Positions 31,246-47,371 of a DNA stretch of 64,000 nt are shown here, one piece after another (within the stretch, counting starts at the first letter, position 1; every line of letters starts with the position of its first letter). Made by a program: the position numbers and the translations under genes. Origin of the DNA: a virus (Duplodnaviria > Heunggongvirae > Uroviricota > Caudoviricetes); the IMG/VR virus record IMGVR_UViG_3300036768_001066; one strand, written 5' to 3'. The notes under the pieces are model-generated. The model searched no databases, was not told the origin of the DNA, and saw nothing but the letters and a program-made list of their open reading frames with translations.

Positions 31246-31269
31246 AAAATTTTACTTCGTTCTTATTTG

Positions 31270-31342: not shown

Positions 31343-31491
31343 ATGATTGATGCCTCGCAGTCAGCAAGGCGTTACCGTTTATATTTTCGTTTCTGCTTCA
31401 TTTTCGTTTCTTAAATTTTTTGGCTCCCATGATTAACGACCTTTGGGTATTAGTATCCGAAACGGTCATGCGGATCTGCCATTATTTTTTG

Positions 31492-31573
31492 AGCCTGAGG
31501 AGGGATTCGAACCCCCGTTGTTTGAGTTCCTGCTTACAAGGCAGGCGCAGTCGACCACTGATGCCACTCAGGC
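31492..31573 (-). tRNA. tRNA-Thr (anticodon TGT) with extended 12-nt variable region
   Basis: Acceptor GCCTGAG/CTCAGGC, stem CCTGC/GCAGG, loop CTTGTAA. Confidence 0.55.
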
Positions 31574-31761
31574 AATTTACATTCTTCTCTTAATGCCCGT
31601 ATGCTCAAGATAAGTTGTTATCGAGAACTGTACAGACGGTTTAAATTTTCCGCCCATTATCTTGCAATAATAATCGGACATAGCGTTCAATTTATATTCG
31701 ACAGGTTTATCTATCTCGTATAGTTCGACCTGCCTCGTTTTTATCTCTCTTGTCTTCATCG

Positions 31762-31834
31762 AGCTACCGGCGGGGATCGAACCCGCGACCTCGTCCTTAC
31801 CAAGGACGTGTTCCACCGACTGAACTACAGCAGC
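31762..31834 (-). tRNA. tRNA-Thr (anticodon GGT)
   Basis: D-arm GTTCAGTCGGTGGAAC, stem CGTCC/GGACG, loop TTGGTAA, T-arm GCGGG TTCGATC CCCGC. Confidence 0.65.
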
Positions 31835-31924
31835 ATAATGAACAGGTGAAATATCGATGCAGTGTGAGATTCTGCTTCTTCTTTCATAGGACGATTGGCA
31901 TAACCCCAATCATCTTGTTCACTG

Positions 31925-31998
31925 AGCATGTAGTCGGGATCGAACCGACTCTGTTCCAGCTTGGAAGGCTGGCGCACCACCACTTATGCGTTACATGC
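31925..31998 (-). tRNA. tRNA-Gly (anticodon TCC)
   Basis: Acceptor GCATGTA/TACATGC, stem CCAGC/GCTGG, loop CTTCCAA. Confidence 0.6.
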
Positions 31999-32091
31999 AA
32001 AATACGTTCTCTCCACTTGCTACCTCCAACTGGTCCCAGGTTCAGCGGTTAAGAGTCAGGTACATCTCATAGTCACCCAGAGAGAACGTGG

Positions 32092-32178
32092 AGCGGGTAG
32101 TGAGATTCGAACTCACGATCTGACCTTATCTGACCAGCTTGGAAGGCTGGTGCGATGGACCAACTACGCGACACCCGC
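32092..32178 (-). tRNA. tRNA-like, anticodon TCC, long variable arm; anticodon arm identical to the canonical tRNA-Gly(TCC) next to it
   Basis: CCAGCCTTCCAAGCTGG followed by TCAGATAAGGTCAGATC, then T-arm GTGAG TTCGAAT CTCAC. Confidence 0.45.
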
Positions 32179-32264
32179 AAATATTTTAGACAGGGACTGA
32201 AGGGAATTTTCACCTTGGCTCCGGCGGCCTTTCGGTCTCACGATCTACATCAGTTTGTCCTTTG

Positions 32265-32336
32265 TAACGGAGGGCAGAATCGAACTGCCGGGGTCCAGGC
32301 TTATGAGACCAGAAGGTTACCAACAACCTCTCCGCA
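32265..32336 (-). tRNA. tRNA-like, probable anticodon CAT, irregular acceptor and anticodon stems
   Basis: T-arm GGCAG TTCGATT CTGCC; loop CTCATAA with a T-T mismatch in the stem. Confidence 0.35.
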
Positions 32337-32529
32337 ATGTTCAGCGGTTCTCCTGGACCCTATTACCAGGATTTACTTTGGATTGTCGAGTTCTAAATTT
32401 CTCAATAATGAACGACGACAACAGAACCACTTAATGTGGCGGACAAGTGAGATAATGACCTTGTGCGAGATTCGAGGTCCTCTCTCATTGGGTGATCGGT
32501 ATCGCAACCCCGACCATTCTTGTCCACTG

Positions 32530-32602
32530 AGCGGGGGACGGGATTCGAACCCGCGACCTTCACCTTGGCAAGGTGACGCTCTACCAACTGAGCTACTCCC
32601 GC
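32530..32602 (-). tRNA. tRNA-Gly (anticodon GCC)
   Basis: GCGGGAG TA GCTCAGTTGGTAGAGC, stem TCACC/GGTGA, loop TTGCCAA. Confidence 0.7.
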
Positions 32603-32716
32603 ATGAACACCGATTCCTGTCTTCCTCACTGCCTCGGTGTACCACAGCAGTGTCATTCCCTAATTGGAGCCGAGGGGCAGCCCGCCGGCTGTGCGTTCCC
32701 TTTCAACTCGGCATTT

Positions 32717-32797
32717 GTGCGGGAGGAGGACTCGAACCTCCGAGGCTTGCGCATAGGATCATGAGTCCTACCTGATACCATCTTCAGTCACCCCGCA
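32717..32797 (-). tRNA. tRNA-like, anticodon CAT, extended 12-nt variable region
   Basis: Stem TAGGA/TCCTA, loop CTCATGA, T-arm GGAGG TTCGAGT CCTCC. Confidence 0.45.
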
Positions 32798-32821
32798 ATA
32801 TTTTGGTCGCCAGACCTTTTG

Positions 32822-32893
32822 TGCACCCGGAAGGACTCGAACCTTCAACCTACCGGTTAAGAGCCGGGAGCTCTACCATTGAGCTACGGATGC
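32822..32893 (-). tRNA. tRNA-Lys (anticodon CTT)
   Basis: GCATCCG TA GCTCAATGGTAGAGC, loop CTCTTAA, T-arm GAAGG TTCGAGT CCTTC. Confidence 0.6.
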
Positions 32894-33156
32894 GTATAAA
32901 AACAAAAAATCCCGGTTGTTTTAACCGGGATTTTAGGAATCTTGTATACTGTTCAGCACATCATGACTCGCAAATCCCGGAGAATACTTTACCATCCTTC
33001 TTCGTTGTGAAGGTGGTCCCTGTGTACATCCCTTTTGTTATTGTTGCGAACATTTTCTGCTGTATTAAAGTTTTACGTTATATCCTATATATCCTATTTG
33101 TTTCGGATTCTGAAGCAAAATTACGAAAATAATCTGTTCCGTTGTACACGCCCCGT

Positions 33157-33897
33157 CTAAAATTTTTCCACAGACAGTTTATTTATCTCAAAGAGGTGCC
33201 CGTTGTTATGTATGTTCTTGAATTTGACACCGTCAAAAACAGACTTACCGAAGCTGCACACCGCAGCATTTATGAATGTTGTGTCGCAATGCTGTATATT
33301 CAGAGCGCCGCTATTTGGGCAGTTCTCCTCTGGGTGTATGTGACCGAACACGTGGTACCTCGGTTTTTTCCTGGCTATCGCGCGCAACATATCTTTGCAC
33401 CCGCACTGGAAGAATGACTGACCATCCGCGCCAGCCCTCGTGTCGTACTGCGTAAGGTCGAGTATTCCCTTGGGAGGGCCGTGCGTTATCAGTATGTCGA
33501 GACCTTCTGGAATATCGTCCCAATACGAGGAGATGCACCCGCGCGGCACATTGAATGCCCAGTCCTTCCCAAATTGCGGGGTGTACGGGCTGCCGAATAT
33601 CTTGAGTCCGCCGACCTCTGCGTATTCGTGCTCGAGATAAGTTATGGACTCATGTATGTCCCCTCTCGTGACGAGTCCCTTCTCTATGGACGTATCATGG
33701 TTGCCGGCAATAAGCACCTTGTACTTGATATGCGTGAGTGACTTGTACCACTCGAGGAAATCGCGTACCTCGTTGTTGTTGACGGCCGGTTCCTTCGAGT
33801 TGGACATGTCCCCGGCATGTATGGCCATATCAACCCCGTCTGGTATATCCAGAAACATGTGCTTGCAATGTGTGTCGCTTATGAACCAGACTTTCAT
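33157..33897 (-). CDS. Calcineurin-like metallophosphoesterase
   Basis: ISDTHCKH, HAGDM, GNHD, ITHGPP, GHIH motifs. Confidence 0.75.
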   Translation of the reverse strand: MKVWFISDTHCKHMFLDIPDGVDMAIHAGDMSNSKEPAVNNNEVRDFLEWYKSLTHIKYKVLIAGNHDTSIEKGLVTRGDIHESITYLEHEYAEVGGLKIFGSPYTPQFGKDWAFNVPRGCISSYWDDIPEGLDILITHGPPKGILDLTQYDTRAGADGQSFFQCGCKDMLRAIARKKPRYHVFGHIHPEENCPNSGALNIQHCDTTFINAAVCSFGKSVFDGVKFKNIHNNGHLFEINKLSVEKF

Positions 33898-34236
33898 TTT
33901 ATTTTCTCCTCAATCAACTCGATGTAGCTACCATACTCCGCGATCTCCTCTGCGCTGTAACCTTTGCTCTTGAAGTTATTTTGCCATCGAGTATTTTATA
34001 ATGTTATGTTTTTTATTATGTGTGTGGGGTCCAGGTGCTGTGATAATTTTAACCCTGGCACCCTAAGCTCCAGTAGACACGCCACTCTATAAAGTTCCGG
34101 TTCGCGAGCATCCCATGTGTAGCATAGGTCTTGCGCCATCTCTATAGCAGCCGCCTCGTAAGTAGGTCACACAGAAGGAATCTTGTCCTCTATGCCAGCG
34201 TACTTATATAGTTTATTTGTTTCTCCGTTAATTCCA

Positions 34237-34539
34237 TCATCTCCAATCCGCATTAGGTTGGTTGAACTCCGGACGTTCGTCAGGATCTGGATGCGCTATA
34301 CGATCGCCGTATTCCTCGCGCCACTTGTCCTGGTTCTCCATGAGATACTTCCAGTTATACATAGTAGTACCAGGCCTCTCTTTGATGCCGACCATAGTGT
34401 AGTTGTAGTGGTCTTCTGGCAAATGCGTACTGTGTTCTATCTTGTTGATGGTGGCAAGGCCACCCTCGAAATCGTCCGCACCCCTGTAAACATACAGCGA
34501 GGTGGGCACGTAAATTTTCTGTCCTTCTTCCGGCTTCAT
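34237..34539 (-). CDS. Hypothetical protein (100 aa)
   Basis: ORF track. Confidence 0.45.
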   Translation of the reverse strand: MKPEEGQKIYVPTSLYVYRGADDFEGGLATINKIEHSTHLPEDHYNYTMVGIKERPGTTMYNWKYLMENQDKWREEYGDRIAHPDPDERPEFNQPNADWR

Positions 34540-34787
34540 GATTTAACGAATACCCCTGTTAATTTTGTCAGAGCGGTCCACAGTCCCCACAGGATAAGGA
34601 ATGTGTCTATTATAGGCCACCCTAACGAGAACGCAGTGTACGCCTGGACGTTGCCGTCCCAGTCGTCGCAATTAGAATAGTCCTTGGGGGCGCTGTAATC
34701 GAACCCCATCGCCTTGCCGAACGTGGCGAACAACGCGACATTCAAGACGAACCCTATTATGTATGTGATGATGATAATTAACACCAT
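34536..34787 (-). CDS. Small membrane protein (83 aa)
   Basis: ORF track; two hydrophobic helices. Confidence 0.4.
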   Translation of the reverse strand: MVLIIIITYIIGFVLNVALFATFGKAMGFDYSAPKDYSNCDDWDGNVQAYTAFSLGWPIIDTFLILWGLWTALTKLTGVFVKS

Positions 34788-34811
34788 AGTTTAATTTTAA
34801 TTTTTTATAGG

Positions 34812-35090
34812 TCATGGTAACATGGCCTTTTTTATTTGAAATCTGCTCGGATGACACCAGTGGACACTATCTCCGTTTGGGAGATGCGTATCACACTTGT
34901 AGCAACGGATCCAGTTGTAAACTGACTTGAGTCCCACATCGATGTGCGTTTGTCCGCACTCGCATACGTGCACGTTCTTTGCTTCGTAATCCTTGTCCAT
35001 CTCGAGCGGCGGTGCCACCTCATTCCCGGTAAGTGGCGCAGTGTTCTTGCACACCAGCGAATCGTTTATTTTTATTTCTGGCTGTTCCAT
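34812..35090 (-). CDS. Small zinc-finger protein (92 aa)
   Basis: CECGQTH ... CYKCDTHL cysteine motifs. Confidence 0.45.
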   Translation of the reverse strand: MEQPEIKINDSLVCKNTAPLTGNEVAPPLEMDKDYEAKNVHVCECGQTHIDVGLKSVYNWIRCYKCDTHLPNGDSVHWCHPSRFQIKKAMLP

Positions 35091-35100
35091 GTCTCATATT

Positions 35101-35607
35101 TTAAAATAAAGGTTTTATGTTTGCCACTGGTTTGCCGAGCAGCTCCGGGTACTTGGAACCCCAGTACGCCCTCACGCCCATGAGTACTATGCCCAGGTTA
35201 TTTTCTCCTTTGCCATTGCACACACCCCAATAGGTATCGTTCCAGTGGTTTGTCTCCTCGAGGTGGCGCTTGCCAGTTGCAAGCAACTCACGACGCAATT
35301 CGATATTACGGTAGAACTTTTCGAACACGATGACGCTCATCACGTCGAACTTTATCCTGGACCAGTCATCGCGAATGGTTACGATCCTGCCGTTCTTCTT
35401 TGCTTCACCAGCCGTACAGTTCAGGAACATAGTCATTCTGGTGGGCTGGTCCTCTGTCTTAGCGGCCTGATATGCGTGTTCGCTCGACGGGTACTTGATG
35501 CCCTCGAAATAAACCGGTGTCATGAAGAAATTGGACAGGAACCTGTACTTCCCGTCGAAGCCCTTTACGTTATAGTCGTCGTGCACTATGTAGCTCTTGT
35601 CGATCAT
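35101..35607 (-). CDS. NADAR (YbiA/DUF1768) domain protein
   Basis: FLSNFF, SSEHAYQAAK, DTYWGVCNGKGENNLGIVLMGVR match the YbiA FSNF / SEHYFQAQK / DxYWG..GKG.N.LG..LM..R signature. Confidence 0.7.
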   Translation of the reverse strand: MIDKSYIVHDDYNVKGFDGKYRFLSNFFMTPVYFEGIKYPSSEHAYQAAKTEDQPTRMTMFLNCTAGEAKKNGRIVTIRDDWSRIKFDVMSVIVFEKFYRNIELRRELLATGKRHLEETNHWNDTYWGVCNGKGENNLGIVLMGVRAYWGSKYPELLGKPVANIKPLF

Positions 35608-35716
35608 CCTGTCCGTCTGTCCTCCTTAATTTTTATTGACATTTTCTTCTTCGGTTTTAAAGTTATTCCTCCTCCGCTTGGTCTCGTTGCCGTTGTCAAG
35701 AATAATCACATAGGCA

Positions 35717-36349
35717 TTATCGATCGGTCTCGTCGTACAACCGTATCTTCTCGGTTAACGCCGGGTTTGTCACGTCAACGACCCTGGTGTCCTTCGGAAG
35801 GATGACATGTTTCTTCTTCGGAGCCAACCCGAGGTCACCGTGTATTTCCGGCGCAAACTCCACGTGCTCATCCTTGCCGTGTTTCTCCACAGTGAAGCAG
35901 TCATCCACCGTTATCTCGTGGTAGAAGTCTGCCATCTCTATGAGGGCCGTCGATGCGCTGTGCCTGAATGCGGCAATCTCGGTCCTACAACCACGAGCGC
36001 TCAAATACTTGACGAGTTCCATGTAATCGGAATCACCCGATAGGATTATTATGGTGTCAACCTTGTCAACGAGCTGGACCGCCTCTATAGTTAGCGGCAC
36101 ATCTGCACTCTTGTAGCATGGCTTGACTATTCCGTAAAAATTCTTGTGTAATCTCTCGGCGAGCTTCTTCGAGATCTTCTTTCCCTCCCTGAGGTAGAAG
36201 AACTTTGACAGACTGCGCCTACCTATAAGACGCGGTATCAACCGGTCGTAATCCATCATCATGAACTCACCAAAGGTGTTAGCGCTCTTGTCCATGTTGT
36301 TGCCGTCCACCAGGACCGCAACAGTCTGCTGTATCTTTATTTCTTCCAT
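35717..36349 (-). CDS. NYN-domain (LabA-like, PIN-fold) putative RNase
   Basis: VAVLVDGNNM and IIILSGDSDY motifs. Confidence 0.6.
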   Translation of the reverse strand: MEEIKIQQTVAVLVDGNNMDKSANTFGEFMMMDYDRLIPRLIGRRSLSKFFYLREGKKISKKLAERLHKNFYGIVKPCYKSADVPLTIEAVQLVDKVDTIIILSGDSDYMELVKYLSARGCRTEIAAFRHSASTALIEMADFYHEITVDDCFTVEKHGKDEHVEFAPEIHGDLGLAPKKKHVILPKDTRVVDVTNPALTEKIRLYDETDR

Positions 36350-36409
36350 CGCTTACCTGTTAGTTTTTCTATTCAGGTAAGTATACTATTTTTTACGAGA
36401 TGAAAAACA

Positions 36410-36730
36410 TCAGGGCGCAATTCCTTCCTCGTAGCTGTACGTGTCCGGTCCGTCCTCCCCGTTCTTGCATTCGGCGACCCAATTGAGGTAACGCGAAGAA
36501 TCGCCGACGCGGAATCTGTACTCCTCTTGCCCGTTATCCCATTTTGCCAGGAATATGGTCACCGGAGAATCGTTGAGTATCCTCGCGACCTGGTCGAGGA
36601 CCCAGTCCTTGTGGTGCGCTCCGTCTATCCCGCCGTATTTCATGATGAACAGTAGGGCAAACTCAGCCTTGGCATAATCCTTGTATGGAGTGTCCTTCTG
36701 CTCCACAAGCGTCTCTCCTAAGTATTTCAT
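36410..36730 (-). CDS. Hypothetical protein (106 aa)
   Basis: ORF track. Confidence 0.45.
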   Translation of the reverse strand: MKYLGETLVEQKDTPYKDYAKAEFALLFIMKYGGIDGAHHKDWVLDQVARILNDSPVTIFLAKWDNGQEEYRFRVGDSSRYLNWVAECKNGEDGPDTYSYEEGIAP

Positions 36731-36758
36731 ATCTGAGTGGGGTGTATTGTCTGGTGAT

Positions 36759-37732
36759 TTAATTTCCTCGCATTGTACGTCTTAATGAGCCACGTGGCGA
36801 AACCGTTATCCTTGAGTAGCTTGGAATGTTTTTGCGCATGGGTTTTGGAGGGCGATCCATCATGATGGTATTGATCCAGTTTGGATTAACGGTGATGCCG
36901 TTCTGTTCCATGAGTTCAACGATAAAAGCCTTCCACTCTTTGTCGAGTTCATCTGCAGTCTTGCGGTATCGACCTCGTAAATGCTGTCCACCCACTTGTG
37001 GTAGTCCTCCCATTGCTCCCCGTTGTCTCCCTCTATCACAACTATAGTTCTCGATCTAACCAGCGGATCGAATCCACTGGAGTTGATGAGGATCTGACGG
37101 GTTGTGTTTAGTACCTGCCTGAGCGATATATTCGTGTTAATGCCCATCTTGTACCCGAGTAGCAGCAAGTGGAACTGCGCAACCCAGTCCTTGCCGAAAT
37201 CTTCTATGGGTATTGGATAATTGCGACGCCATTCGGCTTCCGCCTCTGGCGTCAGGTCGGGCGGAATCTGCGGGTCAGACTTATACTTATCGTAGATGCA
37301 TTTTGCCTCCTCGAGCTTGACCATCTGCGATTCATGAATTATTGCTGCTGCATCCTCGAACGATACCCACTTAAAGTCATCGACCTCCGGTTGCTGCACG
37401 CCCTTCGGGTTGGTGAACATGGACGTGCACTCGCATTTGATGTCATCACCGGATTCTTCGATGACCGCGAGGAACGGCACGAGGGTCTTCTTGCCGTTCA
37501 TAGATTTTGAGAAGTACGGAGAATTCTCGAGGAATATGACATCGAGAGGATCTATCCTTATCCCGGTCTCCTCCAGGGCTTCTCTACATGCAGCTTCTGG
37601 ATACGACTCACCGTCATCCGGCAGCCCCTTCGGAATGGACCACGTCCGTCCCTCCATCGGCTGGTTGGTGATGTGGCACACAAGAACCCGGTCTCTTGTG
37701 TCTATTATGAATATTCCGCAAGTATAAATCAT
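36759..37732 (-). CDS. Nudix hydrolase with apparent frameshift joining ORFs 36860..37732 and 36759..37013
   Basis: Nudix box GLPDDGESYPEAACREALEETGI; protein-like translation switches frame near 36990. Confidence 0.55.
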
Positions 37733-37929
37733 TTTATCAGGTCTGGCAGTAACGCGTATTTTTTATTCAGCATGGTACCGCGCATGTCGGATACCGTATA
37801 GAACTCGCCGTCGATTTCGTAGCTCCATCTGTCGAATTTAATCAGTTCCATCCTAACTGTGTCGATGTGAGGGCATTTATATTCCAATCCCTCACCCGGT
37901 GGAATGGACACTATTGACTCGAACTTCAC
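37729..37929 (-). CDS. Hypothetical protein (66 aa)
   Basis: ORF track. Confidence 0.4.
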   Translation of the reverse strand: MKFESIVSIPPGEGLEYKCPHIDTVRMELIKFDRWSYEIDGEFYTVSDMRGTMLNKKYALLPDLIK

Positions 37930-37960
37930 GTAGAACTCGCGCCGGCCATCTGACAGGTTC

Positions 37961-38233
37961 CTAACCGACAGTATCGCATGAACTATTGGGTACCGCTTCT
38001 CGTCGTCTTGGTTCGCCGACAGGTTCCGCCCTGCTGGCCGTGACTATGATTGGGAAATCGTCGTTGATGAATAAGAACACCCCTTCGCTGTCGAGCGACG
38101 ATAAGCTGTGACCCTTCAAGTCACGGCCGAAGCTTTCGATAGCCTCGTCCAATTTCTTCCTGCGCATTTCATCAGTCTCTTCGACCTTGATGTGTCTCAG
38201 GTTGCCTGGGTATGGGTTTATCTGGCATCGCAA
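37961..38233 (-). CDS. Hypothetical protein (90 aa)
   Basis: ORF track. Confidence 0.35.
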   Translation of the reverse strand: MRCQINPYPGNLRHIKVEETDEMRRKKLDEAIESFGRDLKGHSLSSLDSEGVFLFINDDFPIIVTASRAEPVGEPRRREAVPNSSCDTVG

Positions 38234-38305
38234 TCTTTATTGAAACAAAATCCCGGAACCTGCATAAAAAAATTATGGGTTGTTCCGGGTTTTGATTTAT
38301 TTAGG

Positions 38306-39994
38306 TTAGGCTGTTATCTCAACATCCATCTCGATTTCAGCGTTCTTACGAACCTGGTCGAACGTGTACTCCACAAGGATCTCTCCATCTCGGAATACCG
38401 GCACCAATACGTCCTCGTATTTGTCGAAATCTGGATCTGTTGACTGCACCGTCTTGAATGCTTCCCACGCCTGCATTCCAGGCTTTCTTTCGGCACGAAC
38501 AAGTTTACAGTATCCAGTTTTTGATTTCTTAACCGCATCGGTCACAGGGTTCTTCTCGATGTTCACGCCGACTCCGTTGATAATTACATGCGTAGCCTTG
38601 ATAGCGTACTTCTGCTCGTCGCGGTCGTGTGCCTGTAGATATTTTCCACCGGAACCGAACACCAGATTCATGATGTCGATTTTCACGGAGATCATACGTT
38701 CGTAAAGTAGGGACATCAATTTGTAATTCACACCATCTCCTTGGAGCACACCGATCTGAGGGTGGAATACTCTGAAACCTTTCGAGTTTGTGGTGAATCC
38801 AAAGTGGTCGAACAGGATATTGAAAATTCCTTTATCCACGAGGCTCTGCGCTTCGACAATGTCAATGTCCATGTGTTTAGACACCTTCATCACAACTTGC
38901 GACACGTAGTGCGGGTCCACCTTTGAATCGTTGAACAATCCGAATAGAACCATCTCGGCATCTCCGGAATCAGGACGTACGACAATCTTGATAGGGATAC
39001 CATGATTATTGGTCCATCCGATGAACTCGTCTTTAAGGCCAGGAAGGATTCTGTGACACACGTTATAGATATTCTTGGTATCCGATACGAGAGATAAGAT
39101 GATCACCCCACTTGCAGGGTTGGCATTTAGCACCAATGGGTCGGTCTTGACCTTGTTGATGATGGTGCGGTATCCCTCAGGATCGCTCGCATCGCCATCG
39201 TATGAACAATGCACTGAGTGTTCCGACGCGATAACAGAGAAACCGGCCATTGGACAACCGTAGTACTTCTCGGCAAGAACACAAGCACCTAATGTGTCGG
39301 TTCCTTTGAACGAGATAAGCGCCGCGGTACCAAGGATGCGAGCGGACTCTTCCGAGCTAACTCCACGGTATCCGAAGTCGTGGTGCATGAAGTCGATCAG
39401 CCACTGTGGCGCGTCGGACGACAATGCGTGATACTTAACGATAAGTTCCTTCACCAGGCGAGCGTACGTCGCGACAGTGTTAGGCGCCCACAATTTCATC
39501 AACGTGGTTTCGCTGATGTTGGTGAGTGGTGAGCACTTCTTATCTGTATTGCGGATAGTCATGATGATGTTCTTCACCGCAACCGGAGTACCTTCCGGAA
39601 CTGCCTTGATCTCGAGAGGTAATCTTCCTCCGTGATTCTCCCAGATGTGGTACCACATCTTGTCGTTAAAACAGTCGAAGCCGAAGTGTGCGATGTTCTT
39701 CTTACGAGCTTCCTCGATTTTTGCTGGGGTAATGCGAACACCGGCAAAGTATTTTTTCAGATAGTACTGCAATAAGCAAAGGATAGTGTAAGGCATATCC
39801 CCGCCGCGCGACTCAAGACCCGAATAGGTCTCCTCGATTCCATCAGGTACGAGAAGGTGGTGCGTCATTTTGTAACTGTCCGACATGATGATGAAATTGT
39901 CTTCATCTTGTAAATTTTGGATGATGGCTACGAGCTCTGTCACACTCATGTTTTGCAGCTCGGCATCCGTGTAATCGCCATGATGTTTCTTCAT
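38306..39994 (-). CDS. nadV: Nicotinamide phosphoribosyltransferase (NAMPT)
   Basis: DSYKMTHH, LPLEIKAVPEG, HDFGYRGVSS, FKGTDT, VRPDSG, LQGDGV, VFGSGG align with the eukaryotic and KVP40 NAMPT signature. Confidence 0.9.
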   Translation of the reverse strand: MKKHHGDYTDAELQNMSVTELVAIIQNLQDEDNFIIMSDSYKMTHHLLVPDGIEETYSGLESRGGDMPYTILCLLQYYLKKYFAGVRITPAKIEEARKKNIAHFGFDCFNDKMWYHIWENHGGRLPLEIKAVPEGTPVAVKNIIMTIRNTDKKCSPLTNISETTLMKLWAPNTVATYARLVKELIVKYHALSSDAPQWLIDFMHHDFGYRGVSSEESARILGTAALISFKGTDTLGACVLAEKYYGCPMAGFSVIASEHSVHCSYDGDASDPEGYRTIINKVKTDPLVLNANPASGVIILSLVSDTKNIYNVCHRILPGLKDEFIGWTNNHGIPIKIVVRPDSGDAEMVLFGLFNDSKVDPHYVSQVVMKVSKHMDIDIVEAQSLVDKGIFNILFDHFGFTTNSKGFRVFHPQIGVLQGDGVNYKLMSLLYERMISVKIDIMNLVFGSGGKYLQAHDRDEQKYAIKATHVIINGVGVNIEKNPVTDAVKKSKTGYCKLVRAERKPGMQAWEAFKTVQSTDPDFDKYEDVLVPVFRDGEILVEYTFDQVRKNAEIEMDVEITA

Positions 39995-40017
39995 TTTGGT
40001 TTTTATTTAGGTTTATA

Positions 40018-40638
40018 TTATTGATTTTGGTCTACCAACTCTTTGAACATAGCGAACAGAGGCGCGTGTGTAGGGTTGATCTTAAACTCAGGCGAGTAAA
40101 GTTCCTTAACGTCGAACCACTTTGTCACCGCCACGTCATCGAATCCTTGTCCAGCCTCTCCGTCCTTATGGATGGCATAAAAGAATGATGTTATGATTCC
40201 GTGTGGTGTATCCCTGTACCTCGGGTCGTCGATGTTGGAAGATCCGATGTAGTTCATTTCGAACACGTCCATGCCGGTCTCCTCCTTGACCTCACGTGCA
40301 CCAGCTTCCTCCGCACTCTTGTCGGTCGGGTCGATGAATCCACCAGGGAATCTCCAGATGCCGAGCGATACCTCGTGTGGTTTCTGGATGAGCAATACGT
40401 GTGTTATATTGTGGTCGTGGTCCGTCTTAACCACTGCGACATCCACGGTGTGGAATGCAATGGGGTACCGCACCGTGTATTCGGTTGTTTTTTTCTGGAA
40501 CAGCAATTGCTCGATCTCTGTTGCGGCGCTTGCGGCATCCATAGCATCACCCTCGACGTTTTTTCGAGGTATCTTGTTAACAACCTCGTGGATCTGTTTC
40601 CAAATCTGGCTTCTTTCAATTTCGGTGGTTTGTTCCAT
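40018..40638 (-). CDS. Nudix hydrolase (ADP-ribose / NAD-related pyrophosphatase family)
   Basis: Nudix box GGFIDPTDKSAEEAGAREVKEETG. Confidence 0.7.
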   Translation of the reverse strand: MEQTTEIERSQIWKQIHEVVNKIPRKNVEGDAMDAASAATEIEQLLFQKKTTEYTVRYPIAFHTVDVAVVKTDHDHNITHVLLIQKPHEVSLGIWRFPGGFIDPTDKSAEEAGAREVKEETGMDVFEMNYIGSSNIDDPRYRDTPHGIITSFFYAIHKDGEAGQGFDDVAVTKWFDVKELYSPEFKINPTHAPLFAMFKELVDQNQ

Positions 40639-40916
40639 TATTTCCTTTTATTTAGTTCGTCTCTTATTGCCGCGGCCAGTTCGTAGTCCTCATCTCTCAC
40701 TGCCTTGTCGAGTAAATCTTCCAGATCTGTTGTCTCGTCGTAGGACTTCAACTTGAAAGCCGCCGGTTTTTGCTCGTGTGATTTTAATAAAGTTTTTGCA
40801 CTCGCTCTCGGCTCGAACCTCTGCCTGCTCCGATAGGCGTCTCTCCGTAACGACAGATAGAAGCCTATTCCCAATGCCAAGAACGCCAAAGCTGTTATCA
40901 CTATAGTTATAGACAT
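40638..40916 (-). CDS. Small membrane protein with C-terminal UVR-like motif
   Basis: N-terminal TM helix; DEDYELAAAIRDELNKRK. Confidence 0.4.
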   Translation of the reverse strand: MSITIVITALAFLALGIGFYLSLRRDAYRSRQRFEPRASAKTLLKSHEQKPAAFKLKSYDETTDLEDLLDKAVRDEDYELAAAIRDELNKRK

Positions 40917-40928
40917 GCGCGTAATACA

Positions 40929-41240
40929 TCACTTCTTATATTTGTCCCTCAGAACCTCGGGTATGTGTTCGACAGCGCCGGCCCTCACCTGCGTGGAACT
41001 GACGTTGCTGTGCTCTATGCTTCTCACCTCAATGTGCGACATCACCGATTCGAGCTGCGTCAGTACATAGGGTATCTCGAACCCGTCCCTCTTCACAACA
41101 AAAAGTTTCACATTGTCGAAGTCCTTGTCGAACGTCTCCACCTCCCTGTGATACGGGTGATTAGGCGTTCCGTCGTCCTTCAGTACCGGGTACGAGCTCT
41201 GGAATATACGCACAAGCGTATCTACGCCAACCGCGAACAC
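40929..41240 (-). CDS. Hypothetical protein (103 aa)
   Basis: ORF track. Confidence 0.45.
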   Translation of the reverse strand: MFAVGVDTLVRIFQSSYPVLKDDGTPNHPYHREVETFDKDFDNVKLFVVKRDGFEIPYVLTQLESVMSHIEVRSIEHSNVSSTQVRAGAVEHIPEVLRDKYKK

Positions 41241-41272
41241 GATGGGTTGGCTGAACTTCTGACGAAGGTACT

Positions 41273-42112
41273 TTATGTGAAAAATCCACTGCGTGATACG
41301 ACCACATCGTAGCCGAGCTTGTTGAGGTCTTCTATTCTGCTCTTGAGCTCCTGTGAAGACAGCGTGCCCTTGCCGTATATCTCGGCACTTATCATGAGTT
41401 TTGGCTTGCTGTTGTATTCGGATTTAACAGCCTCTGCTATTTCCACGTGCCCGTTGTGTATAGGGTTGAAGCTTCCCTTGAATAACAGGATGGACCTCTC
41501 CTCCCTGAAAAAATCCTCCAGACGGTAGAACTTGCCGTCTCTGATGCACAGGAAGTCGTCTTGTCTCGTGTGTCTCACCATGTCGAACATTTCGGCCTGA
41601 TTGTCATCGAATCCGTCGACGATGTCCACGCACGCACCGGTCGGAACGTATTCGTTCCTGGCGGCTATGATGAGCAGACCGCACAGTGCTATCCTCTCGA
41701 GGTACTGCTTTCTTGTGAGGCTCTCGTGTATTGATATATGGTAGTATCTCGTCTTCGACTTGTATGCGTACGCGATCCAGCCGTGTGTCGACTTGCCGTC
41801 TCCACCAAGTTGGAATGATGCGATGTAAGCGGCATTCACGCCGTTGAGACCGATCATATCCTTCCATCTCCACTCCAAAATTTTAGACACGCTCTCTTTG
41901 GACACCGCCCTGGTTCCTTCGTTATGGTAGTTGTCGTGCTGGTACTCGCGAGAATATGGACACTCGGACACGTAAACTGTCGCGGTCGCACCGGCAATGC
42001 TCATCAGTGCGTTGACTACGGCAACGCCGCATCCCATCTCCACGAAGCACCCGTAAATGTCGCTGAGGTGAATGTCTTCGGCGAGCTTATCTATTTGCTT
42101 TGATATTTCCAT
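41273..42112 (-). CDS. NMN adenylyltransferase-like nucleotidyltransferase with N-terminal CinA-like(?) domain
   Basis: C-terminal LLFKGSFNPIHNGHVEIAEAV has the GxFxPxHxxH cytidylyltransferase/NMNAT motif. Confidence 0.5.
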   Translation of the reverse strand: MEISKQIDKLAEDIHLSDIYGCFVEMGCGVAVVNALMSIAGATATVYVSECPYSREYQHDNYHNEGTRAVSKESVSKILEWRWKDMIGLNGVNAAYIASFQLGGDGKSTHGWIAYAYKSKTRYYHISIHESLTRKQYLERIALCGLLIIAARNEYVPTGACVDIVDGFDDNQAEMFDMVRHTRQDDFLCIRDGKFYRLEDFFREERSILLFKGSFNPIHNGHVEIAEAVKSEYNSKPKLMISAEIYGKGTLSSQELKSRIEDLNKLGYDVVVSRSGFFT

Positions 42113-42245
42113 AGTTCAAACTGTCTTGTGTGACCTTTGTCATGTGTCGTTTCTCGTTATTGCGCGAGCACCGTCACGATGTCCGCAATCATGAAGCCCA
42201 CCAATAATATGGCGATGAACAAAAGTATTGGTCCTATTCTGAATC

Positions 42246-43523
42246 TCATTTATCTCTCACTACCCTGTCACATTGCTGCAGCAGTTGGTTAAACTTTATA
42301 GCTTCGCGGCGTCTCTGCTCTTCGCCCATCTCCGGTCCTTCCTTCATACCTTCATCTAACAAAGATTGTCCGGTCACACTGAGTTTGTAAACGCTAAGTG
42401 CCAACGCGTTCGCATTACGGCGCTTCTCCTCTTTGGACATTACCCAATGTAAAAACACGGTAAGATCCGCGTCCGCCAGCTCGAGGCGTTCTCTGCGTTT
42501 AGCTATCGTAAACGCGAACGTATGAAGCTCGTCGGTAGCATGCTCAACATACTTGGCAGCATCGAGCAATAGCTCCACACCGTCCACAAACTTATTCGGT
42601 AATTTTATCTCCTCCTTCAGTTTACGGGTGAGCATCTGTCGGCTTGTATCAGATGCGTGGAACAGCGAAGCTACAAGTACCTCCGGAGTTCTTGTGTTAA
42701 TCCATTGCTCCGGATAGTAATACCCGGGCATGACTTGATAGAGTAGACCATATTCCTGCAACAATGTGAAGTACATCAACGGTGAGTTGAGTTGTTCGAA
42801 CGCCTTGAACATTTCTTCATTTATGCGCTCGCGAACAATAGGCACTGTATTACCATCTTTGTCTGGTCCTTCGAGTACCCGGCATTTCATAATGGCTTCG
42901 GCGGTATCCTCGTGTATCTTCATACCAAAGCGAAGCGCAAATCTGATGGCTCTCAGCACGCGCAATCTATCCTCGTTGAACCGGTCCACCGGGTTGCCTA
43001 CACAGCGCAATACTCTGTTCTCTACGTCTTCAACGCCGCCAACAAGGTCGATTATCTCGCACTTGTCGAGGTCGTAAAACAAAGCATTGATGGTGAAGTC
43101 GCGCCGCAGCACGTTCTCTTCGATTGTTGCGCCGAGCCTTACCTCTGGTTGACGCCCGACGGAGACGTCCTCGCGGAAAGTCGCTATCTCGTATCCCTTT
43201 GGACAGTCCTTGGTATAAACTCGTATCACCCCGAAACTCTTGCCCGTGTAATCCAAGCGGTAGTTGTCTTTGAGAAGTTCGGATATTTTTTCTGGCATGG
43301 CGTCTGTGGCCATGTCGTAGTCCTTGATGTTGGACCCGAGCAGGTGGTCACGGACACATCCCCCAACAACAAAGAGCTGGTGACCAGCGGCAGTCATAAT
43401 TTGGTGGATGTCCTTGATGTCCTGTGGAATATTCATAATGTAAAGATACGAATTTTTTATTGATATTGAACCCAGGAGATGCCTGTATCTCTCGATTAGC
43501 TCTTGCTCTTTATCTACATTCAA
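42246..43523 (-). CDS. cca: tRNA nucleotidyltransferase (CCA-adding enzyme)
   Basis: LFVVGGCVRDHLLG ... DYDMAT ... EIATFRED ... RRDFTINAL polymerase-beta head-domain motifs. Confidence 0.8.
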   Translation of the reverse strand: MNVDKEQELIERYRHLLGSISIKNSYLYIMNIPQDIKDIHQIMTAAGHQLFVVGGCVRDHLLGSNIKDYDMATDAMPEKISELLKDNYRLDYTGKSFGVIRVYTKDCPKGYEIATFREDVSVGRQPEVRLGATIEENVLRRDFTINALFYDLDKCEIIDLVGGVEDVENRVLRCVGNPVDRFNEDRLRVLRAIRFALRFGMKIHEDTAEAIMKCRVLEGPDKDGNTVPIVRERINEEMFKAFEQLNSPLMYFTLLQEYGLLYQVMPGYYYPEQWINTRTPEVLVASLFHASDTSRQMLTRKLKEEIKLPNKFVDGVELLLDAAKYVEHATDELHTFAFTIAKRRERLELADADLTVFLHWVMSKEEKRRNANALALSVYKLSVTGQSLLDEGMKEGPEMGEEQRRREAIKFNQLLQQCDRVVRDK

Positions 43524-43532
43524 ATATAAATG

Positions 43533-43560
43533 AAAAGGGGACCCAAAATCGGGTCCCTTT
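43533..43560 (-). terminator. Rho-independent terminator after lipoprotein gene
   Basis: AAAGGGACCC-GATTTT-GGGTCCCCTTTTCATTT on minus strand. Confidence 0.6.
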
Positions 43561-43581
43561 CCTCAGTGAGGATTTCGTCAA

Positions 43582-43752
43582 TTACTTGACGGTGTCACAT
43601 GCAGTGCTGTCTGCACAGCAAGTTGGTGCTACGCAAGCTGTGGTGTCGACCACGCCGGCAGTGCTGTCTGTGGTCGATGGAGCCTCTTCCGCTCCTCCGC
43701 TGCACGAGGCAAACCCTAATGCAATTGCGGCTACGATGATAAATTTCTTCAT
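43582..43752 (-). CDS. Small secreted lipoprotein (56 aa)
   Basis: MKKFIIVAAIALGFASC signal peptide and lipobox; Cys/Thr-rich mature part; terminator hairpin after stop. Confidence 0.45.
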   Translation of the reverse strand: MKKFIIVAAIALGFASCSGGAEEAPSTTDSTAGVVDTTACVAPTCCADSTACDTVK

Positions 43753-43931
43753 TGGTTAGTTGTGTTTTTATTTCAACATATTTATCCGTAAATGGGTGGA
43801 AAGTTGCGGCCTTTTACAAATTTTATTTGTATGTGTGACAGCCGGTTCGGGCCGTTTACCTGACGGAAAAATACGGCATGCCACCACATGGTTGGATAAT
43901 CCTCGCCTTCGTTGAAGACCGGTTAGCTCCA

Positions 43932-45215
43932 TTAGTCTCGTATTTCTACCAGGTACTGAATCGTGCTCTGGTTGGTGTTGTAGACAATGTATTCGTTATT
44001 GCGGAGGTCAGCGCCGCCCTTGGCGAACACAGAGTCGTATCCGTCACGCTTCATCTTAGCTTCATCGAGAGAGCTGTGCTCGGATTTCCAGTTAAGGATC
44101 TCCTTCTGCTTGCCCTGGTGGATTTCGTAAAGCGCAAGGATGGCAGTTTTGGAACCGCCTCGTGCCCAATACGAGCCGCTCAGAGATGTGTATCCGATAG
44201 ACTTCTGCGCCTTGTCTGCGAAGTACACACCGTAGCCGAACATCGAACCGGTAAGCACCGCGTTTGACGGACGGATCTTCAGCCCCTGCTGGAAAATGCT
44301 CCACCAGTTCTCGTTACGTGAGCCGTGCCACAACAGCGCAGTTTTCTTGTTTTTCGCTTTCTTAAGGAAGTTGTCGTACCCGGCTTGCGTTTGGTTGTTA
44401 ACCGCCCGGAAGGCGCGTACAAATTGTTTCGCGTTAGGGCCAAGCATCCTTTTGATCATTTCGATTTCCGCGGGACGACAGTTCATGAGCTCCAATCCAA
44501 GAGTGTGCAACAGATCGTGTTCCTTCTGCTCCGGCGTCGCGTCTTTCTCCTTCACGTTCATGGCAACCTGACCGGCCATGGCATCGAGGGCATCTTGCTC
44601 AACAAGGAGGATTTGATTCATATACTCCTGCAGTTGTTTTTTGTCCTTAATACTTGTTCCTTCGGGTAGCAAGTGGTCCTGCACCTTCTTCATCTTTCTC
44701 GGGATGATCTGGTAGAGCTCGATAAGTTTCTCGTTGATTTCGTCCGCCTTGTTGCCGACCTTGAATAATCCGGTGATAGCATCGAGTACCTGCTGCGCGT
44801 GATCAACCTGTGCCTTTGTAACTTTAGACGCAGACACTGTATAGTTGGCCTCAACCGATTGGTTGGCGAACTTCATCAGCATCTCCACGAATTTCTTGAC
44901 CTCGGCACTGCGGTCCTTGTTGAATATGGACTTGGTCGTGCCGGCGCTCTCGTTAACGGATTCCTCCGCATACAGGTGGGTCACATCCGTGTACGGCTTG
45001 GGTTTCTTGCTCGCCTTCGTTTTGTCGCGGTAGATGCTGTCCCAGTCGCTCATTGGGTAGTTCTTGCGTGTCTCGGTAGAGTCTACGCGCCCCCAGTGTG
45101 CCTCGAACTCATCGGGCGAGATCTGAGTCATGTTGTAAAACTTGTTGTTGTTCGCTCCGGTCACGCAGATTAAGCGTACGACCTTGAATCCTTTTTCGGT
45201 AGTAACTGCTGCCAT
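43932..45215 (-). CDS. WGR-domain poly(ADP-ribose) polymerase-like protein
   Basis: N-terminal WGRVDS; C-terminal LLWHGSRNENWWSIFQQGL ... GSMFGYGVYFAD ... NNEYIVYN matches the PARP catalytic signature including the catalytic Glu. Confidence 0.8.
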   Translation of the reverse strand: MAAVTTEKGFKVVRLICVTGANNNKFYNMTQISPDEFEAHWGRVDSTETRKNYPMSDWDSIYRDKTKASKKPKPYTDVTHLYAEESVNESAGTTKSIFNKDRSAEVKKFVEMLMKFANQSVEANYTVSASKVTKAQVDHAQQVLDAITGLFKVGNKADEINEKLIELYQIIPRKMKKVQDHLLPEGTSIKDKKQLQEYMNQILLVEQDALDAMAGQVAMNVKEKDATPEQKEHDLLHTLGLELMNCRPAEIEMIKRMLGPNAKQFVRAFRAVNNQTQAGYDNFLKKAKNKKTALLWHGSRNENWWSIFQQGLKIRPSNAVLTGSMFGYGVYFADKAQKSIGYTSLSGSYWARGGSKTAILALYEIHQGKQKEILNWKSEHSSLDEAKMKRDGYDSVFAKGGADLRNNEYIVYNTNQSTIQYLVEIRD

Positions 45216-45220
45216 GATAT

Positions 45221-45766
45221 TTAAGCGTTGATTGCGTTTACGATGTCCTGAACCGTCTTGCAGTCCTTGATGTCTTTACCGAACACCTGACCGATGGTCG
45301 AGTAGTCACGGTCGATGAACCCGAGGTCCTCCTGAAGGTTCGAGTTCTTGTTGATAGCCTGCTTGTAGATTCCGAGCTTGCTCGCGATGGCCGTGATTAC
45401 GTCCTCGAGTGCTTTGTCCGCGCTTGCCGGGTTGGCCGTGACGATGACATTGGTTGTATCTCCTGAGTCATTGCTGTCATCTGTGGTAGCGGGAGCCGGG
45501 ATTGACCAGGTGTTGTATGTACCGTTCCATGTGCGGTCCCAATTTTCCTCGCTCGCGATGGTGCTCATCGTTTGGCTAACCTCGTTTTGCGATACCCAGA
45601 AATCCTTAGCGCGTAAGTAATTTTTGATGTCAAGGTTTGTTGTTGTTCCGTTCTGCTTCATCAGTTCGATGGCAGCGTCTTTGATGTCCTGCTTGCTCGC
45701 AGTTTTTTGAGTTGTTTGAGTTGTTGTCATATTGCTTGCTTTGATATTCGTACCTTTCGCCTCCAC
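45221..45766 (-). CDS. Hypothetical protein (181 aa)
   Basis: ORF track. Confidence 0.5.
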   Translation of the reverse strand: MEAKGTNIKASNMTTTQTTQKTASKQDIKDAAIELMKQNGTTTNLDIKNYLRAKDFWVSQNEVSQTMSTIASEENWDRTWNGTYNTWSIPAPATTDDSNDSGDTTNVIVTANPASADKALEDVITAIASKLGIYKQAINKNSNLQEDLGFIDRDYSTIGQVFGKDIKDCKTVQDIVNAINA

Positions 45767-45773
45767 GATGGTA

Positions 45774-46463
45774 TTAAAATTGATAGTTTTTAGTCGGTTT
45801 TCTGAACTTCAATTGGCCGGCACTGTTGTTGCGTTCTGTGACGCCATTCTCGAGTATAGCGTCGAGACGCTTGAGGACAAGACCTTCCATCATGTCAATT
45901 TTTACAAGGTCCTTCCATAACGGCTCGAAGCAGTTGAAGAATGTCTTCACCCTGAACGCATTCTCGACGTTTGTGTTATACATGAACTTCATCGTGTCAA
46001 CTCCGTCAGGGGTTAGCACCATGTCGTCCTTGCCGTAGAGGCGGTCCAATAACTCGATGCGCTCCCTGAACGTTGTGCCTATTAGCTGGAACCCATCGTA
46101 AACGATGATGTCGAATATGACGAACTTGTCGTTCCACACTTTGTCCATGTGGTTGCGTTTGGACTTCGCCATGTACTCGCCTACGAGGACCATCCATTTG
46201 TTTGTCTGCGCGCCCTTCACGTCAGATACGGTCTCGCGATGCAGTTTGGTCAGGTCGATCTTGCACTTGGTGAACTTCTCTTTGTGGCGGTTCCACACGT
46301 GCGACTCGATGCCGTTGGTGAATAACAGGGTACAATCGCCATCGAGCTTAGGCTGAGCGCCGTACTCCTCGGTATCGTATTCCTTTAGTCGCCCGAAATC
46401 GAGTGCGTTCTCGGGTCTCGGCGGATAAATGTATCTGAACTTGTTGTATGGTATCCTGATCAT
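45774..46463 (-). CDS. Small ATP-dependent polynucleotide ligase (nucleotidyltransferase superfamily)
   Basis: Motif I PKLDGDC (KxDG), motif IV EGLVLKRLD, motif V LKFRKPTK. Confidence 0.55.
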   Translation of the reverse strand: MIRIPYNKFRYIYPPRPENALDFGRLKEYDTEEYGAQPKLDGDCTLLFTNGIESHVWNRHKEKFTKCKIDLTKLHRETVSDVKGAQTNKWMVLVGEYMAKSKRNHMDKVWNDKFVIFDIIVYDGFQLIGTTFRERIELLDRLYGKDDMVLTPDGVDTMKFMYNTNVENAFRVKTFFNCFEPLWKDLVKIDMMEGLVLKRLDAILENGVTERNNSAGQLKFRKPTKNYQF

Positions 46464-46480
46464 GGCTTTAATGAGAAAAG

Positions 46481-46497
46481 GAGGGCCTTCGGCCCTC
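46481..46497 (-). terminator. Rho-independent terminator
   Basis: GAGGGCC-GAA-GGCCCTC then CTTTTCTCATT on minus strand. Confidence 0.5.
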
Positions 46498-46502
46498 GTA
46501 AA

Positions 46503-47138
46503 TTATTTGTCTCCGCGAACTTTGATTTGAGTTGTAGGAACGATCTCGCTGAACAATGTCTCAGGAGTTGTGTTGTTGTCGGCAGCGATTTTTGTTAAGT
46601 TCTCGATGGTACCCTTGGCAACCTTGAAGCTTGTGCGTTTTGTGAACATGCTCAATTTTACTTCATCAGGGATAGACTTGATTTTCATGATGGCCTCGGA
46701 AATCTCCTCGGCATATTTTTCGATAGCCTCGTTGTTGATGATGAATTCGTCAGCAGTCTCAACGATGTCCTCGCCGTAAGTTTCTTTAAGGTATGTTGCG
46801 CGATCCTCGTCAATTTTTTTGTATGAGTCCATAACGATGTAAAGAACTCCGTTATTTTGGTTGGCCATGATGAATGACCCAGGACGCTTGTTGCTTTTCT
46901 TGTATTCGTTCATCCACTCGGTCTGAGCAGCAGGTTTAAGGATGCTCTCAGCTTTGGCCTGCATAGCTTTACCGGCCTTCTCCATCTCGCGACCCTTAAC
47001 AAGGTCATCAATTGCGTTTACTACTTCGGGCTCAGTAACCGTAACCATCTTTTTGTCTTCATTAGACTTGGCGGTAACTTCGGTTTTAGCTGTAGCGAAC
47101 AAGTTTGTTTTCGGAGTGGTTGATTTCTTTGTTGACAT
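46503..47138 (-). CDS. Hypothetical protein (211 aa)
   Basis: ORF track; terminator hairpin after stop. Confidence 0.5.
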   Translation of the reverse strand: MSTKKSTTPKTNLFATAKTEVTAKSNEDKKMVTVTEPEVVNAIDDLVKGREMEKAGKAMQAKAESILKPAAQTEWMNEYKKSNKRPGSFIMANQNNGVLYIVMDSYKKIDEDRATYLKETYGEDIVETADEFIINNEAIEKYAEEISEAIMKIKSIPDEVKLSMFTKRTSFKVAKGTIENLTKIAADNNTTPETLFSEIVPTTQIKVRGDK

Positions 47139-47360
47139 GACTTTTAGTTTTTAGGTTTGTAAATTTGTTTCGTTTAATTTGATATAGTAAAGATACGAGC
47201 TTTTTGGATAATAAAAAAATTTGTGGAAAATTTTGCTGGAAATTTACAACCTCTTGGTTGTAAAGATTTCATAATATAAATTATTGATAATCAAGTAGTT
47301 ATATAAGCATCGCCGAGAGGCTTGATTATCATAGACTTCCAGTGGAGTAACGCGAAGTTG

Positions 47361-47370
47361 ATATATAACT
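47361..47370 (+). promoter_or_regulatory. Promoter-like motif GATATATAAC in plus orientation just upstream of the plus-strand PrsW-like gene
   Basis: Motif orientation follows gene orientation. Confidence 0.4.
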
Positions 47371-47371
47371 T

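Follow-up and report, generated by a model that had tools for sequence, protein, structure and literature searches.

The described phage routes to nicotinamide adenine dinucleotide (NAD+) are NadM-Nudix (NAD+ reconstitution pathway 2, NARP2), NadR/PnuC (NARP3) and Adps/Namat (NARP1), and NAD+ reconstitution by phages is a current topic in research on phage-bacterium conflict. NARP2 combines a phage Nampt with an Nmnat, and in about 94% of the phages with a KVP40-like Nampt an Nmnat homologue is present as well (bioRxiv 10.1101/2024.02.11.579819). In the KVP40 pair NadV-NatV (Lee et al. 2017; Osterman et al.) the adenylyltransferase is a NadM fused to a Nudix domain, and the survey of Iyer and Aravind lists NadM and NadR as the only phage adenylyltransferases. 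Here we describe a locus in IMG/VR virus record IMGVR_UViG_3300036768_001066, a stretch of 64,000 nucleotides (the window) out of a genome of about 374 kb, in which a nicotinamide phosphoribosyltransferase (NAMPT) gene, an adenylyltransferase gene and two Nudix genes stand together. The genes discussed here all read from the minus strand. The window also encodes a T4-type portal protein, large terminase, tail sheath, clamp loader, thymidylate synthase, an RNA ligase and 20 tRNA genes, and because of this content we take it to be DNA of a T4-like jumbo phage.

The reading that we favour, as probable but well short of certain, is that the locus holds a NAD+ salvage module of the NadV/NARP2 type (NAMPT, adenylyltransferase and NadM-type Nudix) within an island of NAD/ADP-ribose and tRNA-repair genes, that the adenylyltransferase has a new architecture, and that the module is partly pseudogenised in this genome. 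The likeness to KVP40 lies in a NadV-type NAMPT linked to an adenylyltransferase and to a Nudix of the ADP-ribose type. The locus differs from KVP40 in that the adenylyltransferase is of the NadD type and is fused to a PncC-fold domain, whereas there it is a NadM fused to the Nudix; in addition the Nudix is here a separate gene and the adenylyltransferase gene is frameshifted. The original prediction, which placed the locus in the NadV/NatV (NARP2) pathway, holds in so far as a Nampt, a protein of the Nmnat family and a NadM-clade Nudix are present and are strictly syntenic in related loci, but not for the adenylyltransferase, which is broken here. The relatives fit the logic of NARP2 with a non-orthologous adenylyltransferase. 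NARP1 was also considered and set aside, given that no Prs-like (Adps) hit was found among the open reading frames (ORFs) scanned, which were part of those in the window, and that the adjacent adenylyltransferase favours NARP2.

The NAMPT scores 422.6 bits against the NadV-type NCBIfam equivalog NF006629 (cutoff 405), aligns with human NAMPT structures at E~1e-84 and is a homologue of the NadV/KVP40-type Nampt. It keeps the equivalents of Y18, F193, R196, D219, H247, R311, D313, the GDG motif and R392, among them the autophosphorylated His (EHS, H247) and the nicotinamide-selective Asp (KGTDT, D219). The clear NAMPT seen earlier is therefore borne out by Pfam, NF006629 and the human alignment together, and all the catalytic residues, the loss of which would have spoken against it, are in place. 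Compared with its orthologue in the related locus L001 the protein shows 92% identity and a ratio of nonsynonymous to synonymous substitution rates (dN/dS) of 0.04. The best matches in deposited phages come from jumbo phages, at about 35% identity, and the closest of these homologues adjoin NadM-Nudix genes.

Those same neighbourhoods supply the best deposited-phage matches to the stand-alone Nudix of 206 amino acids (Nudix-206), namely the Nudix halves of the NadM-Nudix genes that adjoin the best-matching NAMPT genes (LR756504, Tunturi_5, DSS3P8, RTH11 and LR756502). Its best NCBIfam matches are to the Nudix half of the bifunctional NMNAT/Nudix (PRK05379), and its best match among solved structures is the NadM-Nudix of Synechocystis (slr0787, PDB 2qjo). 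Among known proteins it is most like the Nudix halves of this enzyme and of the Francisella enzyme (PDB 2qjt), and it differs from both in carrying no NadM domain on the same polypeptide. Its Nudix box has the core REVKEETG with one extra spacer residue. Because Nudix-206 matches NadM-Nudix halves that lie beside matching NAMPT genes, we infer that this lineage retained a Nudix of the NadM clade and exchanged its adenylyltransferase. The Nudix and NMNAT functions had been predicted to sit on separate genes; Nudix-206 does stand alone, but the adenylyltransferase is not the detached NadM half. The order of the two-domain adenylyltransferase (the fusion), a small UVR-motif gene in some loci, Nudix-206 and NAMPT is syntenic in L001, L006 and L007, with proteins that are 50-77% identical. 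In L001 the genes form one uninterrupted series of fusion (398 aa), UVR (90 aa), Nudix (206 aa), NAMPT (562 aa), a 189-aa protein, a second Nudix (351 aa), a 107-aa protein, NYN (247 aa), a 105-aa protein and NADAR (168 aa).

To judge from its sequence, the adenylyltransferase gene is inactivated in this genome by a 7-nt deletion. The ORF at 41273..42112 (279 aa), described earlier as NMNAT-like, does belong to the NMN/NaMN (nicotinamide or nicotinic acid mononucleotide) adenylyltransferase family and matches nucleotidyltransferase models, but it is a fragment, just the 5' 70% of a frameshifted gene. It holds the N-terminal domain and the HxGH motif (GSFNPIHNGH at ~41476), and its CTP_transf_like match covers only 28 of the 133 profile positions. 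The second adenylyltransferase motif, ISSTxxR, lies as VSSTQVR on the next ORF downstream (40929..41240, 103 aa). With one base added in the T-run 41280..41284 the two ORFs read as a single 394-aa protein with a Pfam match over 132 of 133 positions. A database search with the joined protein returns homologues in single ORFs (395-411 aa, 50-78% identity), as well as the exact 279-aa fragment of this genome. In tblastn alignments the ORFs of eight related loci likewise pass from frame -1 to frame -3 at 41280. In the DNA alignment with L001 the window reads GGATTTTTC, then a seven-position gap, then ACATAAAG, against GGGTTCTTTAACACCAACATCAAA. Because of the deletion, the HxGH and ISSTxxR motifs, which in relatives share one Rossmann-fold chain, do so here only after frame correction. 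No second adenylyltransferase of the same family was found in the window. Since the ORF is a truncated fragment, the step from NMN to NAD+ is not encoded intact here; an intact Nmnat is missing from the window and present in L001, L004, L006 and L007.

In the intact form carried by the relatives, NAMPT would make NMN from nicotinamide and phosphoribosyl pyrophosphate, and the NadD-type domain of the two-domain protein would convert NMN and ATP to NAD+. The PncC-fold domain, which lacks the catalytic dyad, most likely binds NMN without deamidating it and may serve in substrate capture and hand-over or in regulation. The stand-alone NadM-clade Nudix would hydrolyse ADP-ribose to AMP and ribose-5-phosphate. 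In this genome NMN is probably still made and ADP-ribose still hydrolysed, and because the adenylyltransferase is broken while NAMPT is intact, the last step to NAD+ would be left to host enzymes.

The purpose of such a pathway is a separate matter from its chemistry. Counter-defence, which the original prediction proposed, is one possible role only; genes for NAD+ consumers and for erasers of ADP-ribose belong to the island too. We regard it as possible, though clearly the lesser prospect, that the module, instead of countering defences, mainly feeds the phage's own NAD+-consuming enzymes (the ADP-ribosyltransferases and perhaps NAD-dependent RNA repair); the purpose would then differ while the chemistry stayed the same, and this alternative is compatible with a NARP2-type salvage module. 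The conserved island has a PARP-like ADP-ribosyltransferase and a NADAR protein, to which L006 adds a Macro-domain gene, and a second ADP-ribosyltransferase gene (ART-PolyVal, 21680..22429, minus strand, Pfam E=8.9e-17) lies in the window 14 kb from the island. A CCA-adding enzyme, a NYN protein, a ligase-like nucleotidyltransferase, an RNA ligase and the 20 tRNA genes surround it, and neighbourhoods with NADAR, NadV and NadM have been noted before (PMC9503650). In a distant relative on a 549-kb contig (L091, 8001..12164) NAMPT comes directly after a 35%-identical homologue of the fusion, and the next gene encodes a kinase fused to the NAD+-dependent RNA 2'-phosphotransferase Tpt1/KptA, a gene order that ties the module to RNA repair. 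On the other hand, the KVP40 NARP2 genes overcome NAD+-depleting defences in experiments (bioRxiv 10.1101/2024.02.11.579819), and the PARP-like gene is intact here while the adenylyltransferase is broken, which argues against a strict dependence of the ADP-ribosyltransferase on NAD+ made by the phage. The sequence data do not separate the two roles.

The deletion in the adenylyltransferase gene is one of five frame-disrupting indels in the island, of 7, 5, 1, 1 and 4 nt. The two 1-nt deletions, at ~36964 and ~36830, break the long Nudix gene, which tblastn divides into three pieces in frames -1, -3 and -2; restoring one base per site gives an uninterrupted 335-aa ORF that ends in the C-terminus of its relatives (...HPTQI) and is 63% identical to P0019. 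A frameshift in this gene had been placed at 36990. It is real, but it lies at ~36964, is accompanied by the second one, and leaves the end of the ancestral gene at 36727 and not at 36759. Both Nudix-box proteins that had been reported are genuine (E~1e-16 to 1e-17), the long one with the canonical box GLPDDGESYPEAACREALEETGI (Gx5Ex7REUxEExGU). The frameshifted one is not the NadM-type Nudix and belongs to a rare 351-aa architecture, with only five members found among 5.8 billion proteins; an AlphaFold model of it from a 4-sequence alignment reached a mean confidence (pLDDT) of 45 and was unusable. In the homologue of the 189-aa protein of L001, which has no Pfam or PHROG hit, tblastn finds a change of frame, from -1 for residues 18-85 to -2 for residues 92-188. 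A 4-nt insertion in the NYN gene leads to a stop at ~35719 and cuts off about 30 C-terminal residues, and the lost tail still matches in another frame. The original prediction had passed over the adenylyltransferase frameshift and the split 189-aa gene, as well as the PARP-like, NADAR, NYN and CCA-adding neighbours.

A scan for frame switches with the ORFs of 88 related loci finds these five in the ~6.3-6.5 kb of the island (35600..42150) and none in the other coding DNA of the window that homology covers (19.3 kb). Overlapping same-strand ORF pairs elsewhere, considered as additional frameshifts, were supported neither by Pfam nor by relatives. The segments past each frameshift are free of stops and have a dN/dS of 0.06-0.12 against L001, at saturated dS. 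As these segments are still open and constrained, the breaks should be recent relative to the divergence from L001. Together with NAMPT, Nudix-206 and NADAR, which stand intact beside the broken genes, this makes the island look like an accessory module that has recently and partially decayed.

It is rather improbable that the frameshifts are artefacts of sequencing or assembly and that the full three-enzyme pathway is intact in the real phage. An artefact would, it is true, leave the segments past the frameshifts fully open and as conserved as those upstream, which is what we see; furthermore, the 36830 site lies in an A-run and the 41280 site abuts a T5 run. Most of the indels are outside homopolymers, however, and read errors do not typically take the form of 7- and 5-nt gaps, of a 4-nt insertion or of a 1-nt deletion away from any homopolymer, as at 36964. 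A Logan contig (L005), seen in two samples and made by a different assembler, is 100% identical to positions 32574..48759 of the window (16,186 bp), although the two assemblies may share reads. Homopolymer sequencing error in particular was rejected on the sizes and contexts of the indels and on the absence of frame switches in the 19 kb outside the island. Both the 373,759-bp JGI contig and the Logan contig have the 279-aa product of 41273..42112 on record, and exact-sequence look-ups of the NAMPT and of this fragment return only the two assemblies of this genome, with no closer strain recorded that has an intact allele. Megablast of 36400..42300 against phages gave no match, which leaves no deposited phage similar at the DNA level, and a NAMPT-based search of viral contigs for related loci confirmed none.

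The N-terminal domain of the fusion was recognised only by structure. In a model of a relative's protein it has the fold of the CinA C-terminal domain/PncC, the NMN deamidase, a relationship undetectable by HMMER; phmmer of the frame-corrected fusion and a search with the N-domain profile against PDB sequences gave no hits. An hhalign comparison of the N-domain profile with the single E. coli PncC sequence was meaningless. With an alignment of 5 PncC sequences in its place the profile-profile match is weak (E 0.18), but its register agrees with the secondary structure. Matches to PDB PncC chains (E~1e-38) validate the E. coli PncC sequence used. In this register E25 corresponds to E28 of E. 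coli PncC, M26 to S29, Y53 to Y56, Q58 to K61 and RAVS to GAVS. Near-invariant positions of the family are E25, G27, Y53, R68, S71, Q102, H112, G113, H127, R136 and D165. Like PncC and the CinA C-terminal domain (PDB 2a9s, 6l19, 4ct8), the fusion keeps the Glu of the ESCTGG block, the phosphate-binding Tyr, the AVS motif and an Arg equivalent to R145, with Y53, R136 and AVS kept across the family. Unlike them it lacks the catalytic Ser and Lys and has invariants of its own (Q102, H112-G113, H127 and D165).

By that weak alignment, the Ser/Lys dyad is absent from the family. Among 161 members the Ser position is held by T, I, M, V, A or L and the Lys position by Q, F, S, V or A, never by K; the phage clade has Met and Gln. 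The dyad is S31/K63 in AtCinA (S29/K61 in E. coli), where the S31A and K63A mutants are inactive (PMC5384747), and an engineered E. coli PncC with K61Q is inactive and still binds NMN, but not NaMN (PMC8231969). The Gln of the phage clade occupies exactly this position, and the family presents a natural counterpart of the engineered NMN-binding PncC. The N-terminal domain is thus most likely a module that binds NMN without deamidating it. An active deamidase that turns NMN into NaMN, and on to nicotinic acid adenine dinucleotide in a Preiss-Handler detour finished by the host NAD synthetase, is unlikely. The fold is that of an NMN deamidase, the partner domain is of the NadD type, which prefers NaMN in bacteria, and Thr stands at the nucleophile position in 50 of the 161 members. 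These points are outweighed, to our mind, by a general-base Lys that never appears in the family, by the Met of the phage clade at the Ser position, by the inactive AtCinA mutants, and by the waste that such a route would make of the amide preserved by NAMPT.

The C-terminal domain finds its top NCBIfam matches in NadD models, all below their cutoffs. It shares the HxGH and ISSTxxR motifs with NadD and the eukaryotic NMNAT, and it differs from them by the attached PncC-fold domain and, in this genome, by having the motifs on separate ORFs. An exhaustive profile search in clusters of 50% identity retrieved 723 clusters at E<=1e-3 and 130 at E<=1e-30, and both NadD motifs are present in 128 of the 142 full-length members. 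With at least 130 such clusters the family is big enough for study. For the intact fusion of a relative (P0001), neither PHROGs nor a tblastn search of 50,697 phage records gave a match, and a full-text literature search turned up no paper on a PncC-NadD fusion in phages. As neither deposited phage genomes nor PHROGs contain the fusion, a survey based on homology to KVP40 NatV would count these phages as carriers of Nampt that have no Nmnat. In several giant-phage lineages NadV goes instead with a NadD-type adenylyltransferase that has a PncC-derived pseudo-deamidase attached. A bacterial metagenome-assembled genome also carries the fusion, with no NAMPT nearby. We put forward, tentatively and as something we would not yet bet on, that the fusion is a third, uncharacterised class of NAD+-forming enzyme of phages and bacteria, which replaces NadM or NadR as the partner of NadV in giant phages and in which the domain that lost its dyad, with its new invariant set of E25, Q102, H112, H127 and D165, serves for NMN-specific capture or channelling or as a new enzymatic module and so feeds the NadD-type adenylyltransferase. 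If so, the local pile-up of indels would record selection against a costly pathway or a relaxed need for it. The frameshift cluster would in any event be a natural example of the loss of an accessory NAD+ module, which bears on the proposed metabolic cost of NARP2.

Very improbable is the idea that the broken adenylyltransferase still works, by -1 slippage at GGA TTT TTC before the stop or as a two-piece enzyme: a -1 shift in the T-run would restore the ancestral frame exactly and the downstream ORF is fully open, but A TTT TTC departs from the canonical heptamer X XXY YYZ, the T-run arose from a deletion that relatives do not share, the break lies inside the Rossmann fold, and the downstream ORF, which has no obvious ribosome-binding site, would have to begin at a GTG and would lack helix 280-288. 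Programmed frameshifting as a general explanation was likewise rejected, as four of the five indel sites have no slippery sequence.

Several points weigh against a partly decayed module with an NMN-binding pseudo-deamidase. The clustering statistic that favours local damage, a chance of (0.25)^5 ~ 0.001 if indels fell evenly, applies to a region that was chosen after the data had been seen. The indels rest on two assemblies that possibly derive from the same sequencing data. The largest target, NAMPT, is untouched, which is only marginally unlikely under random decay (~0.05), and therefore selection may still maintain part of the module. Another NMNAT, a NadR or a NadM, could lie elsewhere in the 374-kb genome, outside the 64 kb examined. 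Finally, the mapping of residues from PncC to the fusion depends on the weak profile alignment and on agreement in fold and secondary structure, and the invariant polar residues E25, Q102, H112, H127 and D165 could mean that the N-terminal domain is an enzyme of a different chemistry.

Table 1. Genes of the NAD/ADP-ribose and tRNA-repair island, with positions in the window
Feature	Position	Strand	Evidence and state
NADAR-domain protein (hydrolase family linked to ADP-ribose)	35101..35607	-	Pfam NADAR 1.3e-22; intact
NYN-domain ribonuclease	35635..36349 (ORF 35717..36349, 210 aa)	-	Pfam NYN 8.8e-21; domain intact
106-aa conserved phage protein	36410..36730	-	L001 orthologue is phrog_23179; intact
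Long Nudix (351 aa in relatives)	36727..37732 (ORF 36860..37732)	-	Pfam NUDIX E=2.1e-16; broken
Homologue of the 189-aa protein	37729..38233 (split into 37961..38233 and 37729..37929)	-	5-nt gap at ~38013
NAMPT (NadV-type nicotinamide phosphoribosyltransferase), 562 aa	38306..39994	-	Pfam NAMPT_N E=1.8e-24, NAPRTase E=6.9e-36; intact
Nudix-206, stand-alone, NadM-Nudix (ADP-ribose pyrophosphatase) clade	40018..40638	-	NUDIX E=3.7e-17; intact
UVR-motif small protein, 92 aa, hydrophobic N-terminus	40638..40916	-	Pfam UVR E=1.8e-8
PncC-fold + NadD-type NMN/NaMN adenylyltransferase	40929..42112	-	7-nt deletion at ~41279; broken
CCA-adding/poly(A) polymerase-family nucleotidyltransferase	42246..43523	-	Pfam PolyA_pol 1.7e-32
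PARP-like ADP-ribosyltransferase (NAD+ consumer)	43932..45215	-	Pfam PARP 4.4e-26

The neighbouring genes (Table 1) recur in the relatives to differing extents. The CCA-adding gene is always directly upstream of the adenylyltransferase gene, the NADAR gene is kept in L001, L006 and L007, and the PARP-like gene in L004, L006 and L007. The PARP-like protein has an N-terminal segment with a WGR sequence, and its LWHGS, GYGVYFA and NNEYIVY fit an H-Y-E triad. The slot of the small UVR gene between the adenylyltransferase and Nudix genes is also filled in L001, L004 and L006, and a UVR motif ends both this small protein and an unrelated one at 10499..11329 (minus strand). A 56-aa ORF at 43582..43752 (minus strand), kept in L002 and L004, opens with a lipoprotein-like signal, MKKFIIVAAIALGFASCSGG. 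Protein identity to L004 is 94-98% for the PARP-like and ligase-like proteins and 89% for the CCA enzyme (~42100..46500), but 77% for the adenylyltransferase next door (40900..42100). This drop points to a recombination boundary, near 42.1-42.2 kb, where the frameshifted region ends.

The 20 tRNA genes form two clusters that flank the island (29179..32893 and 49344..52081, minus strand), and the CCA-adding, NYN and ligase genes sit between them. Some class-I tRNAs have abnormal called lengths (Lys 91 and 89 nt, Gly 90, Met 84 and 81, Thr 83), for which introns or mis-calls are possible. A 1276-aa ORF at 15979..19809 (minus strand) encodes the T4-type large terminase and within it a LAGLIDADG homing endonuclease at aa 324-391 as well as, at aa 649-979, Hint/intein splicing domains. 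In most of the relatives from metagenomes the terminase takes up only about 590 aa, and one or more inteins seem to have been inserted here; the adjoining 336-aa ORF at 19796..20806 (minus strand) also matches Terminase_6N. The thymidylate synthase (54371..55477, minus strand) has 368 aa and matches a profile of 266 positions from end to end, with about 100 extra residues that may be an insertion or a divergent segment.

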